A DNA stretch of 46,481 nucleotides from a virus (lineage: Duplodnaviria > Heunggongvirae > Uroviricota > Caudoviricetes), in the IMG/VR virus record IMGVR_UViG_648861009_000008. One strand, written 5' to 3'. Below are positions 9,892 to 44,351 of this stretch, one piece after another (the first letter of the stretch is position 1; the number at the start of each line of letters is the position of its first letter). A model generated the notes under the pieces. That model was not told where the DNA came from. It saw nothing but the letters and a program-made list of their open reading frames with translations, and did no database searches. The translations under genes were made by a program, and so were the position numbers.

Positions 9892-10730
9892 NNNNNNNNN
9901 NNNNNNNNNNNNNNNNNNNNNNNNNNNNNNNNNNNNNNNNNNNNNNNNNNNNNNNNNNNNNNNNNNNNNNNNNNNNNNNNNNNNNNNNNNNNNNNNNNNN
10001 NNNNNNNNNNNNNNNNNNNNNNNNNNNNNNNNNNNNNNNNNNNNNNNNNNNNNNNNNNNNNNNNNNNNNNNNNNNNNNNNNNNNNNNNNNNNNNNNNNNN
10101 NNNNNNNNNNNNNNNNNNNNNNNNNNNNNNNNNNNNNNNNNNNNNNNNNNNNNNNNNNNNNNNNNNNNNNNNNNNNNNNNNNNNNNNNNNNNNNNNNNNN
10201 NNNNNNNNNNNNNNNNNNNNNNNNNNNNNNNNNNNNNNNNNNNNNNNNNNNNNNNNNNNNNNNNNNNNNNNNNNNNNNNNNNNNNNNNNNNNNNNNNNNN
10301 NNNNNNNNNNNNNNNNNNNNNNNNNNNNNNNNNNNNNNNNNNNNNNNNNNNNNNNNNNNNNNNNNNNNNNNNNNNNNNNNNNNNNNNNNNNNNNNNNNNN
10401 NNNNNNNNNNNNNNNNNNNNNNNNNNNNNNNNNNNNNNNNNNNNNNNNNNNNNNNNNNNNNNNNNNNNNNNNNNNNNNNNNNNNNNNNNNNNNNNNNNNN
10501 NNNNNNNNNNNNNNNNNNNNNNNNNNNNNNNNNNNNNNNNNNNNNNNNNNNNNNNNNNNNNNNNNNNNNNNNNNNNNNNNNNNNNNNNNNNNNNNNNNNN
10601 NNNNNNNNNNNNNNNNNNNNNNNNNNNNNNNNNNNNNNNNNNNNNNNNNNNNNNNNNNNNNNNNNNNNNNNNNNNNNNNNNNNNNNNNNNNNNNNNNNNN
10701 NNNNNNNNNNNNNNNNNNNNNNNNNNNNNN
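9892..10730. other. assembly gap (839 N) hiding the 5' end of J, genes K and I, and the 3' end of L
   Basis: Run of N; flanking ORFs are J (C-terminal part) and L (N-terminal part). Confidence 0.95.
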
Positions 10731-27290: not shown

Positions 27291-28314
<1,024 letters not shown>

Positions 28315-28318
<4 letters not shown>

Positions 28319-28602
28319 ATATATTTATGATGAGGACGCTCGTGCTTATTGGCAGGATTTTCAATCTTAAAGGAGTACTGATGCTGCAGATAAGACTCAA
28401 CTTTTTCTGACAATTTTTCTGCTACTTCCAGGAAGACTTGCCGGACGCTCCTTCTGGCTGCTGCCTCATAAAACTCCAGCGCAGCTCCTTCAACACGGTC
28501 CATGGCGACATCCAGGTCAAAAATTTCACCGTCAAAGCGTTCTTTGTCCTGTAAGGCTACAGTTACCGTAACTTTATTCTCAAAATTACGGACTCCTTTC
28601 AC
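28315..28602 (-). CDS. ydfR: DUF1327-family prophage protein (YdfR-like)
   Basis: 95-aa ORF between holin and endolysin, overlapping the endolysin start by 4 nt. Confidence 0.55.
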
Positions 28603-28630
28603 AACCAGTTCATAGTCTTGAGTCGTTGGA

Positions 28631-28846
28631 TTACTCTCCTCTCGCAGCCTTACGCCTGTCTTCTTTAATCTTGAAATAAAGATTTGTCAGATACGTCAGC
28701 AGGCCAAAAACCAGGCTACCCAGCACACCGATTGCAGCCCACTGTGACGGAGTTACTTTATCGAGTAACTGCAATGCCCAGAAACCAGCATTACCCGCCG
28801 ATGTGCCATAGGCAACACCTGTTGTTAACTTATCCATTGATTTCAT
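28631..28846 (-). CDS. essQ: class II holin / pinholin (phage 21 S-like) with dual start MKSMDK
   Basis: [71 protein letters not shown] closely matches S21 as recalled; the ORF track extends upstream to 28921. Confidence 0.85.
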
Positions 28847-29065
28847 ATCCTCACCCCGATGTACACGGATGGTGCAATATGTTTGAAAAGATCGGAGTCT
28901 ACGGGGTAGTTTTGACAGCACACGTTGTTCTCAACGGCGCTAAAAAAACATACACATTAAAAATGTGGGTAATTATTTTGAAAGAAAGTCATATATAAAA
29001 TAATAATACGAGAAATGTTTTCATATTTAGTGTACTGTATACGGCCATTTATACAGGAAAAGCCT

Positions 29066-29236
29066 ATGTCAGAACGTAAAAACTCAAAATCACGCCGTAA
29101 TTATCTCGTTAAATGTTCCTGCCCAAACTGCACCCAAGAGTCAGAACACAGTTTTTCAAGAGTACAAAAAGGTGCCCTTTTGATCTGCCCTCATTGCAAC
29201 AAAGTATTCCAGACAAATCTTAAAGCTGTAGCCTGA
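29066..29236 (+). CDS. small zinc-ribbon protein (CxxC-x17-CxxC)
   Basis: MSERKNSKSRRNYLVKCSCPNC...LICPHCNKVF; the ORF track starts at an upstream ATG at 29015. Confidence 0.45.
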   Translation: MSERKNSKSRRNYLVKCSCPNCTQESEHSFSRVQKGALLICPHCNKVFQTNLKAVA

Positions 29237-29295
29237 TTGATTTTATTAGTAACAAGTATTTTTTATATTTTAATAATATATTTAAAGCAGATAAT

Positions 29296-29320
29296 AAAAA
29301 ACCCGCCTGAGCGGGTTTGA
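29296..29320 (-). terminator. Rho-independent terminator (strong on minus strand, weaker on plus)
   Basis: AAAAAACCCGCctgaGCGGGTTT; the minus-strand reading has the hairpin followed by TTTTTTATT. Confidence 0.65.
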
Positions 29321-29599
29321 GATTGTGGTGCTTTTTGTGGGAGTCATCCACTTACGCACTTTGTTTTGCCATGCCAGCAGTTAGCTTCTGCTGTAAAACT
29401 ATTCATGCAGCAAACCTGCACTTCACCACAATGGTTAGCATACTTTTCCTGATTAAGATTTTGCCAAATATGCTAGCCATTGTTTCATGTATTGGACCTC
29501 CTTACTTTTTATTAAAGAGATCCAATATTCACTACTCTGTCCGTATCTCTACTCAGGCATCAGCCTTCTTCGTTATCGTATACAGACGAGCGATGAATT

Positions 29600-29815
29600 T
29601 TAATCAGTAATGATGACATTTGCTGCTGCAGGACCTTTAGCACCACTCTCTATAGAGAAGGTAACCTTTTGACCTTCAAATAAGGTTCGATAATTATCAT
29701 TCTGAATCGCAGAAAAATGCACAAACACATCTTTACTACCATCAACAGGAGAAATAAAGCCGAAACCTTTATCAGCGTTAAACCATTTTACTAAACCAGT
29801 CATTTTATTTGACAT
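29600..29815 (-). CDS. cspB: cold-shock protein (CspA family)
   Basis: [23 protein letters not shown]...VHFSAIQ..., 71 aa. Confidence 0.9.
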
Positions 29816-30115
29816 TCTACATTCCTTAACTTGAGCCTTTCGGCATAAATGGTTTGCATAACAGAAACGACTTCGTACTTAATTGGAGAGACTCAAAGAA
29901 GGAATAAGTGAATAACACCTGAAATGAGAACTGCTTTAGTAAACTACTTCGTATATCGTCTGTTCTTCAAACCGACGCAATCATTAACGCATAGTTGAAC
30001 ATATGAAGCAATGTTTATTTTAGACATCCAGCCATCTTCAACCCCATCAAAAAACTATAGCTTTCTTCAGGAACGTGTGTATAGTGCGCCAAGTTATCAG
30101 TATTAAGGAATTTTT

Positions 30116-30328
30116 TTGTCCCGTAAAATGACAGGAATTGTCAAAACCTTTGACGGCAAAAGCGGCAAGGGTCTTATCACCCCATCCGATGGTCGTATCG
30201 ATGTCCAGCTTCATGTTTCAGCGCTCAATCTCCGCGATGCAGAAGAAATTACCACCGGATTACGCGTGGAATTTTGCCGGATAAATGGTCTGCGTGGCCC
30301 TTCAGCTGCCAATGTTTACCTTTCATGA
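30116..30328 (+). CDS. cspF: cold-shock-like protein (CspF/CspH type), apparent TTG start; alternative ATG at 30128
   Basis: (M)[36 protein letters not shown]...; divergent from cspB. Confidence 0.8.
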
Positions 30329-30612
30329 GCTATATTAAAGCTTTAATTTCAGGCCCCATCGGATCACACATGGAGAGTTTTTATGAATAACCCCGTCTGT
30401 CTTGATGACTGGTTGATTGGCTTTAAAAGCTTATGCTGTACTTTGGCCGTAATAGCTCTGCTAATAATATAATAAGCAGACTCATTGTGTTTAGGGACAT
30501 TGTACTGGAAGAAAATATTTTAAACATCAGGCAAATAACCAAGTCACCAGCTAAATAATAAGTTAACAGACATGAGTCCCGGGATGAGATTCAACATTAC
30601 CATTGCCCCATT

Positions 30613-30645
30613 TAAAGCACAAAACCCGCTCATCAGCGGGTTTTC
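30613..30645 (-). terminator. candidate tR'-like terminator downstream of the late promoter
   Basis: Minus-strand hairpin AACCCGCTGatgAGCGGGTT followed by TTGTGCTTT. Confidence 0.5.
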
Positions 30646-30689
30646 TACTTTTTCTTAACGTCGGGTATACAAAGCCCATCGTTGAAAAA

Positions 30690-30718
30690 ATTTTATCCAT
30701 ATTTTTTGAAAAATGCAA
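30690..30718 (-). promoter_or_regulatory. candidate late promoter pR' (TTGCAT-17-TAAAAT) just downstream of Q
   Basis: Near-consensus sigma70 hexamers with 17-nt spacer on the minus strand, about 30 to 60 nt after the Q stop. Confidence 0.55.
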
Positions 30719-30749
30719 ACATCATGTCGCCATCTTCAGCAAAAATCAT

Positions 30750-31502
30750 TTATCTCGTCACCTTCCTCAATTGCGCTTCCGCGTATGCTTCTTCCTGCCA
30801 GCACTTTGTTACCAGTTTATCAATGACGTCCGCATACCCCTTATACCACTGATAATCGGTCAGGTCTGGTACCAGCTTCTGGACATGACGTCGTGCCAGC
30901 GTGGTCGGTAAACGACTAAATCGGTTTCCATTACAACGCCCACAAATCTTATATACCGGTACGCCATGAAACCGGGTTCTTTTTTCATCCAGAACAATCC
31001 CTTTACCCTTACACCCTCTGCACGCTGTGCTGACTTCGCCCTTACCATGGCAATGCTGACATAGTTCCTTCACCCATTCTTCCTTGATTACAGATTCCCC
31101 GCGTCTGTAGTGTTTCACCACTTCGCGCAATACATTATAAAATCCCGTACCTGAACAATGCTCACAGCGAGCCTTACTTGCCGCAGACCTGGAGTAATCA
31201 GCAAAGGCAAAATTCACAAGGTAAGGAATAATCTGTAACCGGATTTCTTCACTCAATTTGTTCAATGTCGGGTTATCCAGTGCCATCGCGTAATTTAGCA
31301 GGCCTTCAATCGCAAACTGAGGGTCCTGAACACCAACTTTTGCCAGAAATAAGGCCAACCCAAGTGGTGCTTTCGACTGCACCATCCCCTGCGCTGCCAT
31401 TACATCCGTAATTGTTAAACAACCGGTGCCTGTCGCTGGAGCGTCATCGCTCAATTTTGGAGATTTTGGGGAGTAATATTTTGGTAAGGCTTCAAGGTTC
31501 AT
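30750..31502 (-). CDS. quuQ: late-gene antiterminator Q
   Basis: 250 aa with Cys-rich zinc-binding region (CEHCSGTG...CQHCHGKG...CRGCKGKG...CGRCNG); lambdoid Q position upstream of the lysis genes. Confidence 0.85.
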   Translation of the reverse strand: MNLEALPKYYSPKSPKLSDDAPATGTGCLTITDVMAAQGMVQSKAPLGLALFLAKVGVQDPQFAIEGLLNYAMALDNPTLNKLSEEIRLQIIPYLVNFAFADYSRSAASKARCEHCSGTGFYNVLREVVKHYRRGESVIKEEWVKELCQHCHGKGEVSTACRGCKGKGIVLDEKRTRFHGVPVYKICGRCNGNRFSRLPTTLARRHVQKLVPDLTDYQWYKGYADVIDKLVTKCWQEEAYAEAQLRKVTR

Positions 31503-31515
31503 GCTCGTTCTCCAC

Positions 31516-32604
31516 TTACGCCAGTACGCCAGTTGCCAGCGCGCGATCGATAAAACGAAATATCAGCTCCAGTTGGGAGCCATACTTCTCTTCAAATGCC
31601 ACTGTATCCGTATGCAGCTCGTTGTGATGCTTTCTGCACAAAGGCAACACAAAGAGATCATGTGCTTTTGTTCCCATTCCGCCCTGCCCGTGACCAATCA
31701 GATGATGCGGATCGTCGGCTGGCATACCGCAGCAAGCACACGGCTGTGTCTTAACCCAACGAGTGTATTTCTCCTTAACCCAGCGGCGACGTTTAGGCAG
31801 CTTCATGAAAGATTCCGGAGACTCTGGATCAACGGTGATGCTTACCACCGTCTTTTCCTGTGGTGGTTTTTGTTGCTGGTGGGCGTAAGGCAACGGTGCA
31901 AGATTTTCTGTGCGTTGTTTCAATATGCTGGTGGCGGTCTGCTCTCCCTGTACGATGTCGCTTTCGCGGTACACCGAGCAGATTTTTTCCGCTGGTAATC
32001 CCAGCGAACGACGCGATACAGCCTCAGGTAGTGCATCCACCACCTGATTGCAGACCGCCCACCAGGATAATTCAGCCAAAGATAATTCCCGCTCCTGCGT
32101 ACCGCTTATTGCGTGACGGATGACGTCAATCACCCATGCTGTCAGATTTTGTTGAGCAAGCAGCTCCAGTGATTCCGATGTCTGGTCACGCAGTTGGTTG
32201 TCGCAGTGCCAGCACAACACCATTGCGCCGGTACCATAACGGTGAATGACTGTTTCAGTGTGATGGTAATCGCCATTAGGCCACTGGCAGGATGTAACAT
32301 GACGTAATAGCCAGTCAGACAATGCGCCAACGCCGCCAGTAGCACGAATCACCCGTTCGTTACTAAAAAACGGCAGCAATGTTTTGTCTTCTGCCAGCGG
32401 CTGGCGAACGGCAGGAACGACTCCGGATGGCAGATTTCGCATGCTTTTTGGTTCCGGTTCCACCAGCACTCGAGGATTATGAAATATCTGTATGGATTCA
32501 CGGCCCGGCTTAAGGACCACCAGCCCAAGCTCAGGCACCAGAACAGGTCTAAGTAATACCCGCACGTTACCTCCAGATCCGTTGCTGGAAAGTGCGGGAC
32601 GCAC
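31516..32604 (-). CDS. ydfU: DUF968-family prophage protein with C-terminal HNH-like Cys/His motif
   Basis: 362 aa; C-terminal CACCGMPADDPHHLIGHG...CRKHHNELH. Confidence 0.7.
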   Translation of the reverse strand: MRPALSSNGSGGNVRVLLRPVLVPELGLVVLKPGRESIQIFHNPRVLVEPEPKSMRNLPSGVVPAVRQPLAEDKTLLPFFSNERVIRATGGVGALSDWLLRHVTSCQWPNGDYHHTETVIHRYGTGAMVLCWHCDNQLRDQTSESLELLAQQNLTAWVIDVIRHAISGTQERELSLAELSWWAVCNQVVDALPEAVSRRSLGLPAEKICSVYRESDIVQGEQTATSILKQRTENLAPLPYAHQQQKPPQEKTVVSITVDPESPESFMKLPKRRRWVKEKYTRWVKTQPCACCGMPADDPHHLIGHGQGGMGTKAHDLFVLPLCRKHHNELHTDTVAFEEKYGSQLELIFRFIDRALATGVLA

Positions 32605-33535: not shown

Positions 33536-34715
33536 NNNNNNNNNNNNNNNNNNNNNNNNNNNNNNNNNNNNNNNNNNNNNNNNNNNNNNNNNNNNNNNNN
33601 NNNNNNNNNNNNNNNNNNNNNNNNNNNNNNNNNNNNNNNNNNNNNNNNNNNNNNNNNNNNNNNNNNNNNNNNNNNNNNNNNNNNNNNNNNNNNNNNNNNN
33701 NNNNNNNNNNNNNNNNNNNNNNNNNNNNNNNNNNNNNNNNNNNNNNNNNNNNNNNNNNNNNNNNNNNNNNNNNNNNNNNNNNNNNNNNNNNNNNNNNNNN
33801 NNNNNNNNNNNNNNNNNNNNNNNNNNNNNNNNNNNNNNNNNNNNNNNNNNNNNNNNNNNNNNNNNNNNNNNNNNNNNNNNNNNNNNNNNNNNNNNNNNNN
33901 NNNNNNNNNNNNNNNNNNNNNNNNNNNNNNNNNNNNNNNNNNNNNNNNNNNNNNNNNNNNNNNNNNNNNNNNNNNNNNNNNNNNNNNNNNNNNNNNNNNN
34001 NNNNNNNNNNNNNNNNNNNNNNNNNNNNNNNNNNNNNNNNNNNNNNNNNNNNNNNNNNNNNNNNNNNNNNNNNNNNNNNNNNNNNNNNNNNNNNNNNNNN
34101 NNNNNNNNNNNNNNNNNNNNNNNNNNNNNNNNNNNNNNNNNNNNNNNNNNNNNNNNNNNNNNNNNNNNNNNNNNNNNNNNNNNNNNNNNNNNNNNNNNNN
34201 NNNNNNNNNNNNNNNNNNNNNNNNNNNNNNNNNNNNNNNNNNNNNNNNNNNNNNNNNNNNNNNNNNNNNNNNNNNNNNNNNNNNNNNNNNNNNNNNNNNN
34301 NNNNNNNNNNNNNNNNNNNNNNNNNNNNNNNNNNNNNNNNNNNNNNNNNNNNNNNNNNNNNNNNNNNNNNNNNNNNNNNNNNNNNNNNNNNNNNNNNNNN
34401 NNNNNNNNNNNNNNNNNNNNNNNNNNNNNNNNNNNNNNNNNNNNNNNNNNNNNNNNNNNNNNNNNNNNNNNNNNNNNNNNNNNNNNNNNNNNNNNNNNNN
34501 NNNNNNNNNNNNNNNNNNNNNNNNNNNNNNNNNNNNNNNNNNNNNNNNNNNNNNNNNNNNNNNNNNNNNNNNNNNNNNNNNNNNNNNNNNNNNNNNNNNN
34601 NNNNNNNNNNNNNNNNNNNNNNNNNNNNNNNNNNNNNNNNNNNNNNNNNNNNNNNNNNNNNNNNNNNNNNNNNNNNNNNNNNNNNNNNNNNNNNNNNNNN
34701 NNNNNNNNNNNNNNN
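33536..34715. other. assembly gap (1180 N) hiding the hok regulatory region and the left part of IS5
   Basis: Run of N between the hokD start and IS5 transposase C-terminal coding sequence. Confidence 0.95.
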
Positions 34716-44299: not shown

Positions 44300-44351
44300 N
44301 NNNNNNNNNNNNNNNNNNNNNNNNNNNNNNNNNNNNNNNNNNNNNNNNNNN
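44300..44351. other. assembly gap (52 N) between two overlapping copies of the same ~445-bp sequence
   Basis: 43851..44299 and 44352..44798 are near-identical apart from single-base indels. Confidence 0.9.

Follow-up and report, generated by a model that had tools for sequence, protein, structure and literature searches.

Directly downstream of its antiterminator gene quuQ, the cryptic prophage Qin of Escherichia coli K-12 very probably carries a late regulatory unit that is homologous to the late promoter pR', the qut site and the terminator tR' of phage lambda. The unit lies on the minus strand of the IMG/VR virus record IMGVR_UViG_648861009_000008, the whole stretch of which (46,481 nucleotides, nt) is referred to here as the window. 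It is an ordinary, hitherto unannotated lambda-type Q cassette, and existing genome-wide data had not been linked to it before. What raises the case above chance is the identity of the segment AACGATGGG to the pause element of lambda pR', the z-score of the RNA fold, the conservation of the layout in relatives, and published maps of the transcription start site (TSS), the pause and the RNA 3' end.

The window was identified as Qin by alignment to strain MG1655 and from the RefSeq annotation, and published K-12 maps are therefore applicable to it. Over the 241 nt round the cassette, there is 100% identity with E. coli K-12 MG1655 and with more than 1200 further E. coli genomes. Cassette coordinates are given as window positions on the minus strand; a position in NC_000913.3 equals the window position plus 1,611,739, with unchanged orientation. 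Coordinates in the older version NC_000913.2 were converted with an offset at Qin that we take to be 1976 bp, presumably due to IS1, 1-bp and IS5 insertions, which agrees with the difference in total length. In the K-12 RefSeq annotation, the interval between ynfS and ydfT (quuQ) contains no annotated feature and no RNA gene.

Promoter and Pause Element

The promoter part of the unit consists of the following features.

30752-30750, minus strand: stop codon TAA of quuQ
30718-30713, minus strand: -35 element TTGCAT, 31 nt past the quuQ stop
30712-30696, minus strand: spacer TTTTCAAAAAATATGGA, 17 nt, predicted Q-binding element (ungapped alignment to lambda; position annotated in phi80)
30711-30705, minus strand: TTTCAAA, candidate core of the spacer, plus TGG at 30699-30697
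30695-30690, minus strand: -10 element TAAAAT (lambda equivalent TAAATT)
Between -10 and +1, minus strand: six bases, TTTTTC
30683-30675, minus strand: sigma-dependent pause element AACGATGGG, i.e., the -10-like AACGAT (+1 to +6) followed by GGG (+7 to +9)

The two hexamers and the 17-nt spacer had been pointed out in a first-pass annotation of the window, which placed them just after the Q stop, and this description is exact. The register with a 17-nt spacer is backed by relatives, which have TTGCAA/17 or TTGACT/17 at the equivalent place. A promoter prediction, proposed as a check at the same time, gave a mixed outcome. A consensus scan did find the site, with a score of 9/12 in the adjacent register TTTGCA/18, but over 4 kb it returned 10 promoter-like sites, compared with 8.2 ± 3.1 in shuffled sequences.

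We regard as decisive a feature that the first-pass annotation did not contain, i.e., the identity of the pause element to positions +1 to +9 of lambda pR'. The sequence AACGATGGG begins exactly 6 nt past the -10 element and occurs only once in the 46-kb window. Lambda pR' reads TTGACT-tattgaataaaattggg-TAAATT-tgactc-A(+1) (PMC4604602). When the two promoters are aligned without gaps, they agree in 4/6 bases of the -35 element, 11/17 of the spacer, 5/6 of the -10 element and 9/9 from +1 to +9. The AACGAT of lambda is a -10-like element that is re-bound by sigma70, with the GGG at +7 to +9 as its discriminator-like partner, and together they produce the pause at +16/+17 where Q is loaded (PMC5001585, PMC9388147).

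The segment between the Q stop and the -35 element (30719-30745, minus strand) is also partly common to both phages, reading GATGGCGACATGATG in Qin and GATGGCAACAT...GCATGATA in lambda. In the QuuQ clade as well as in lambda and P22, the motif CAYGATR directly adjoins the -35 element, possibly as an UP-like element or as a site for another protein. A 51-codon open reading frame with a TTG start (30563-30718, minus strand) was considered as a gene and rejected. It has no Pfam match and, since it begins in the -35 element and spans the leader and the terminator, it is almost certainly spurious, although the record of phage PhiR42_1 has it as a hypothetical protein.

Transcription Start, Pause and 3' End in Published Maps

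Two positions from published data fall on the predicted elements.

30683, minus strand: transcription start (+1), the first A of AACGAT (differential RNA sequencing, dRNA-seq)
30666..30667, minus strand: sigma70-associated promoter-proximal pauses (RNA 3' ends 16-17 nt past the TSS)

The TSS was mapped by dRNA-seq (Thomason 2015) and tabulated as 1640446(-) in NC_000913.2 (Sun et al. 2021, PMC7876045). It converts to 1642422 in NC_000913.3, i.e., window position 30683, a placement good to ±1 nt; this is 7 nt past the -10 element and the same base as the +1 of lambda. The coordinate had no match in the Cappable-seq supplement, a table that is possibly partial.

The pauses stem from delta-greAB cells analysed by sigma70-affinity RNET-seq. 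Strong ones are recorded at 1640429 (score 6881) and 1640430 (score 5783), and weaker ones at 1640431-33, all on the minus strand of NC_000913.2 (Sun et al. 2021, PMC7876045, Supplementary Data 1, 2); the two strong ones lie 17 and 16 nt, respectively, from the TSS. The pause at 1640429 stands in row 12 of the sigma70/delta-greAB sheet and in row 4 of the sheet for class G1d (PMC7876045), where it ranks as the fourth strongest in the genome. In this class, by definition, a canonical -10 element is separated by 6 nt from a -10-like element, and the pause falls 16-20 nt from the TSS (PMC7876045). The Qin site thus is listed among the G1d pauses and has their defining build, and here the adjacent Q gene is the obvious dedicated client. 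The text of PMC7876045 makes no mention of prophages, Qin or Q for this pause site.

A third map concerns the end of the transcript. Term-seq identified a dominant 3' end at 1642356(-) in NC_000913.3, which was classed as 'orphan', appears in at least two growth-condition sheets and is printed as ...CCCGCTGATGAGCGGGTTTTGTGC|TTTAAATGGG (Adams et al. 2021, PMC7815308). It corresponds to window position 30617 on the minus strand, 8 nt past the stem of the hairpin described below. The published maps therefore contain a real TSS, a sigma70-bound paused complex and an RNA 3' end after the terminator, data that support an active promoter, sigma70-dependent pausing and termination.

Terminator and Short RNA

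The distal part of the unit is made up as follows.

30617..30644, minus strand: intrinsic terminator tR' (fold; Term-seq 3' end)
30640-30625, minus strand: stem-loop CCCGCT-GATG-AGCGGG with tetraloop GAUG, beginning 50 nt past the -10 element
30617..30683, minus strand: terminated pR' transcript of 67 nt, the analogue of lambda 6S RNA (TSS and Term-seq 3' end)

The GC hairpin and U-rich tail that the first-pass annotation had noted about 50 nt beyond the promoter are indeed there. The stem can be extended by an AAAA/UUUU pairing; the hairpin is followed by TTTTGTGCTTT, and the tail is UUUUGUGC, i.e., UUUU and then GTGCTTT. The records of SfV, Ayreon, HK225, phi80 and P22 mark homologous hairpins as terminators. 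The predicted short, 6S-like transcript is likewise borne out, as the TSS and the Term-seq end delimit an RNA of 67 nt, compared with 194 nt for lambda 6S RNA. This RNA folds with -26.2 kcal/mol (z = -5.55 relative to shuffled sequences), and the minimum free energy fold shows a 5' hairpin, an A-rich linker UAAGAAAAAGUAGAAAA and the terminator hairpin.

The terminator check suggested by the first-pass annotation held in part only: the consensus scan called the hairpin solely on the plus strand (stem 30621-30644, tail CTACTTTTTC), the failure on the minus strand being due to the interrupted T-run. One might therefore suppose that the hairpin mainly terminates the convergent cspF-ynfS transcripts of the plus strand, or the quuQ operon, and that the promoter hexamers, which as a pair are at chance level, are incidental. 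The hairpin is indeed symmetric, with an A-tract and a U-tract as is typical of bidirectional terminators, and it is terminator-like on the plus strand, where it may also end convergent cspF-ynfS transcripts. However, the TSS, the sigma70 pause and the Term-seq 3' end all lie on the minus strand within the unit, and the hairpin accompanies Q and pR' also where a phage has no cspF (SfV, Ayreon, Stx2c phages). We consider this explanation extremely improbable; as the sole explanation it is largely refuted, whilst an additional bidirectional role is plausible.

The short RNA could also be the product of a free-standing small RNA (sRNA) gene that acts in trans, with antitermination being secondary or lost. 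Precedents are StxS, IsrK and lambda 6S RNA, which are by-products of antiterminated promoters (PMC7547250). StxS of Stx1 and Stx2a phages, which like the Qin RNA is a short constitutive RNA of the lysogen derived from an antiterminated late promoter, is reported to be ~74 nt long, processed by RNase E and bound by Hfq, with known targets (Sy et al. 2020, PMC7547250). The 3' end of the Qin RNA belongs to the ~900-1200 dominant Term-seq ends under non-inducing conditions, and its three-part structure, with the linker single-stranded, is sRNA-like. On the other hand, it has no Rfam match, and the short, interrupted U-run at its 3' end is ill suited to Hfq. Among close relatives, the linker is free to vary, and the conserved parts are the -35 element, the spacer, the -10 element and the pause element. 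A role in trans is compatible with the cassette, but as an alternative to it we judge it quite unlikely.

Conservation in Relatives

The relatives retrieved from viral contigs were all at least 95% identical, and diversity was therefore obtained by tblastn against phages and by a genome scan. The 300 nt 3' of Q were compared in 15 phages and 80 species-representative Enterobacterales genomes. The same layout, i.e., a -35 element, 16-17 nt, a -10 element, 6 nt and AANRAT followed by GGG, recurs in the phages and at ~50 Enterobacterales loci. AACGAT|GGG is found exactly in 33 of the 80 genome loci, and many more have the close variants AATGAT, AACAAT, AATAAT or AACGCT. The heptamer that follows the -35 element is clade-specific: TTTCAAA or ATTCAAA in the QuuQ clade, TTGAATA in lambda and P22, and GTGGCGA or TTCCGGA elsewhere. 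It occupies the position where the phi80 record puts the binding site of gp17 (Q), 1 nt past the -35 element, and would fit a determinant of Q specificity.

A simple terminator search placed the end of the first terminator at ~+50 to +75 in most leaders of the lambda-Q family, and the 67 nt of Qin are thus the typical form. Among loci L098-L177 and the phage loci, a minority (lambda itself and loci L136, L145/146/158 and L159) end at ~+190 to +240.

SfV, Ayreon, mEp460, Stx2c-converting phages and others are 80-86% identical to Qin at the DNA level from the end of Q to the U-tract and divergent beyond it; the shared segment (query 8-160) reaches window position 30621. As the homology halts at the U-tract, Q, pR' and tR' appear to travel as one module. 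The complete 48.7-kb phage PhiR42_1 carries a cassette that is 100% identical, followed by the same gene order, from which it follows that the arrangement is not a product of decay in K-12.

In comparison with lambda, Qin has a Q of the same family (PF03589) and the same layout (Q stop, ~30-45 nt, -35 element, 17 nt, -10 element, 6 nt, +1), with the identical AACGATGGG, a pause at ~16-17 nt and an intrinsic terminator before the lysis genes. The two differ in the length of the terminated RNA given above, in 6 of the 17 bases of the spacer, in a 48-amino-acid insertion that is absent from lambda Q, and in the 1.8 kb of csp and ynf genes that in Qin separate tR' from the holin gene. Closer in leader length are phi80 (gp17 (Q)/pR') and P22 (gene 23/P-late), which have a lambda-family Q and a nearby terminator, giving RNAs of ~55-75 nt; in their records, the promoter pR' with its start, the Q site and tR' are marked at positions equivalent to those in Qin. 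Phi80 has a long-arm Q like QuuQ and the same -35 element, TTGCAT, but its pause element is AACGCT instead of AACGAT. The spacer heptamers of the three differ (TCGCGGA in phi80, TTTGAAT in P22 and TTTCAAA in Qin).

The QuuQ Antiterminator

The gene immediately upstream of pR' encodes a recognized member of the Q family.

30750..31502, minus strand: quuQ (ydfT, b1559), lambda-Q-family antiterminator of 250 amino acids (open reading frame, Pfam, BLASTP, K-12 annotation)
30999-31142, minus strand: insertion of 48 amino acids relative to lambda Q (residues ~121-168) in the zinc-ribbon arm

Three families of Q proteins are distinguished in Pfam: PF03589 (lambda Q), PF06530 (Q21) and PF06323 (Q82) (Yin et al. 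2022, PMC9388147). QuuQ matches only PF03589 ('Antiterm', E = 7.7e-55). BLASTP gave 34% identity to lambda Q (E = 2e-41), and QuuQ also matches chain Q of PDB entry 7UBM, i.e., lambda Q in the cryo-electron microscopy structure of the loading complex (E = 5.7e-37). A cassette of the Q82 or Q21 type was considered and rejected, given the family match and the lambda-like position of the pause element (+1 to +6) and of the pause (~16-17 nt). In phage 82, the pause is at +25 and its element lies further downstream (PMC5001585), and in the Q21-type cassette the binding element is a direct repeat.

The insertion contains extra CxxC pairs and matches the Pfam domain DnaJ_CXXCXGXG (E = 7.8e-9). The long arm is present in 11 of 13 aligned Q proteins, the short form being that of lambda and P22, and no long-arm Q came up among solved structures. 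It is through the zinc-ribbon arm that the protein touches sigma region 4 and the Q-binding element.

In the K-12 annotation, Qin is a cryptic prophage, and it is conceivable that the unit is a fossil in which the promoter, the pause and the terminator work but QuuQ is silent or inactive in K-12, so that only the short RNA is made. Consistent with this view, the in vivo data found all show termination, with no read-through seen, and a search of the literature accessible to us yielded no functional study of quuQ/ydfT. The gene itself tells otherwise, as the open reading frame has its full length and the conserved residues of the family are present. Moreover, QuuQ is 98.8% identical to the Q protein of the complete phage PhiR42_1, where the cassette region of 241 nt is 100% identical, and 95% to that of Stx2c-converting phages. 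Overall, we find the fossil reading doubtful, and for the module as such it seems unlikely, given the identical copies in intact phages.

One further transcript end was noted within the gene. A bicyclomycin-sensitive, i.e., Rho-dependent, 3' end at 1643015(+) in NC_000913.3 lies at window position 31276 on the plus strand, antisense to ydfT (Adams et al. 2021). It resembles the paQ and a23 antisense RNAs within lambda Q and P22 gene 23.

Proposed Mechanism and Its Weak Points

The Qin cassette is proposed to work as follows. Sigma70 polymerase starts constitutively at 30683 from TTGCAT-17-TAAAAT. Sigma region 2 then re-binds AACGAT with the adjoining GGG on the non-template strand, and the complex pauses ~16-18 nt out. 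Without Q, the polymerase leaves the pause and terminates at the hairpin and U-tract at 30617, freeing the 67-nt RNA. Once QuuQ is made, it would bind to the spacer of the promoter and be loaded at the pause, probably together with NusA as for lambda Q. The loaded polymerase would be terminator-resistant and proceed through tR', antisense to ynfS and cspF, through cspB and its terminator, and into essQ-ydfR-rrrQ-rzpQ.

Several points weigh against this reading. The binding of QuuQ to the spacer is predicted from position, and its loading and the read-through of tR' are, like the binding, deduced from homology. The insertion lies in the arm that contacts DNA and sigma and, therefore, the loading geometry and the contacts with the Q site and sigma region 4 may differ from those of lambda Q. 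The promoter hexamers by themselves are at chance level, and the U-tract on the minus strand is interrupted (UUUUGUGC). The placement of the TSS depends on the assumed version offset. The lysis genes are located ~1.8 kb from tR', behind the inserted cspF (on the opposite strand), cspB and ynfU. Lastly, Qin is a cryptic prophage whose Q might never be produced in K-12. Nevertheless, the lambda-like interpretation of the first-pass annotation is sustained by the lambda-family Q, the gapless alignment of pR', the nine of nine matches in the pause element and the maps of the TSS, the pause and the 3' end.

A Predicted 5'-Terminal Hairpin in the Leader

The leader contains one additional predicted structure.

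30657..30683, minus strand: predicted 5'-terminal RNA hairpin (minimum free energy fold; covariation in the family)

In Qin, AACG (+1 to +4) pairs with CGUU (+24 to +27), enclosing an inner UGGG/CCCG helix. Pairing of the first 4-5 nt with a segment at ~+19 to +29 was observed in nearly every cassette of the family, in combinations such as AACGA/TCGTT, AATGA/TCATT and AACAA/TTGTT. Besides Qin, the hairpin was located at L004 788-810, L095 1402-1424 and ~40 more loci.

The complement of a leader's own +1 to +4 is present within +13 to +36 in 34 of 47 unique leaders, compared with a mean of 5.8 and a maximum of 14 in 2000 shuffles. The pairing partner changes with the 5' end: leaders with ACGA at +2 to +5 have TCGT in 16 of 30 cases and TCAT in none, and those with ATGA have TCAT in 9 of 11 cases and TCGT in none. 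When 44 distinct sequences are aligned with a covariance model, 93% of the cells pair and double changes occur in four of the five pairs. Twelve cells are compensatory, against 1.4 ± 1.1 in shuffles (none of 500 as high), and the pairing collapses in slid registers. This alignment was fitted to the structure, its sequences are related, and three weak matches in it are probably spurious. MAFFT/RNAalifold runs on +1 to +30 and on the hairpin sequences alone gave ungapped or end-gapped alignments without a structure, and were superseded by the complement-presence test and the covariance-model alignment. No description of the 5' hairpin, and no paper on the Qin pR', was found in the searchable literature, older literature and subscription papers being outside the search.

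The first 4-5 nt of the RNA are set by the pause element in the DNA and covary with ~+19 to +29, and hence the 5' end might always be locked in a terminal hairpin. We propose tentatively, and with rather low confidence, that the pR' transcript thereby carries a selected RNA element. Its function could possibly be to provide the 'RNA folding' that bars re-threading through the Q torus, or to shield the 5' end and so stabilize the late mRNA. A folding of the RNA after threading, which makes the linkage between Q and RNA irreversible, has been invoked (Yin et al., PMC9388147). The abundant 67-nt Qin RNA with its hairpin might also serve as an StxS-like riboregulator.

Downstream Genes and Surroundings

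The genes that would be served by the cassette lie 3' of it on the same strand.

27291..28846, minus strand: late (lysis) genes essQ, ydfR, rrrQ and rzpQ (open reading frames, Pfam, K-12 annotation)
29318-29299, minus strand: cspB terminator (scan)

The product of essQ is a P21-type holin (PF04971) and that of rrrQ a phage lysozyme (PF00959). On the minus strand past tR', the order is antisense ynfS and cspF, cspB, antisense ynfU and then essQ-ydfR-rrrQ-rzpQ. The lambda-like arrangement that the first-pass annotation had envisaged is thus present insofar as lysis genes follow downstream, but they are not adjacent.

A search of 28500-32000 against Rfam with permissive thresholds found no family at the cassette. 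Elsewhere in this region, it gave the cspA-type 5' untranslated region of cspB (RF01766) and three sub-threshold matches away from the cassette. Over the cspB terminator (29296-29374, minus strand), a Trp leader and isrK (18.3 bits, E = 0.83) match below the threshold, the isrK score being at chance level; IsrK is an RNA of Gifsy-1 that is associated with a Q-type antiterminator. The window also contains N-masked runs at 33536-34715, 9892-10730 and 44300-44351. By alignment of K-12 coordinates, the first of these, of 1180 nt, begins just past hokD and spans relE, relB and ydfV.

In Stx2c-converting phages such as LC727877.1 (L179 4740-8701), which have the 95% identical Q, the cassette is situated ~2.6 kb upstream of stxA/stxB, which were recognized by their RIP and SLT_beta Pfam matches. 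Between the cassette and the stx genes are a methylase gene, tRNA-Met and tRNA-Arg. From this position, the cassette type appears to be the late promoter governing Stx2c.

Significance

The general understanding of Q antitermination is not changed by these results. They do close a gap in the annotation of the best-studied bacterial genome: an abundant 'orphan' RNA of 67 nt and one of the strongest sigma70 pauses of K-12 are explained as the tR'-terminated product and the Q-loading site of Qin. The cassette represents a natural chromosomal Q-loading site of the lambda type with a long-arm Q, the form that prevails in the family. Since a cassette of the same type is located upstream of stx2c, its properties bear on toxin expression.

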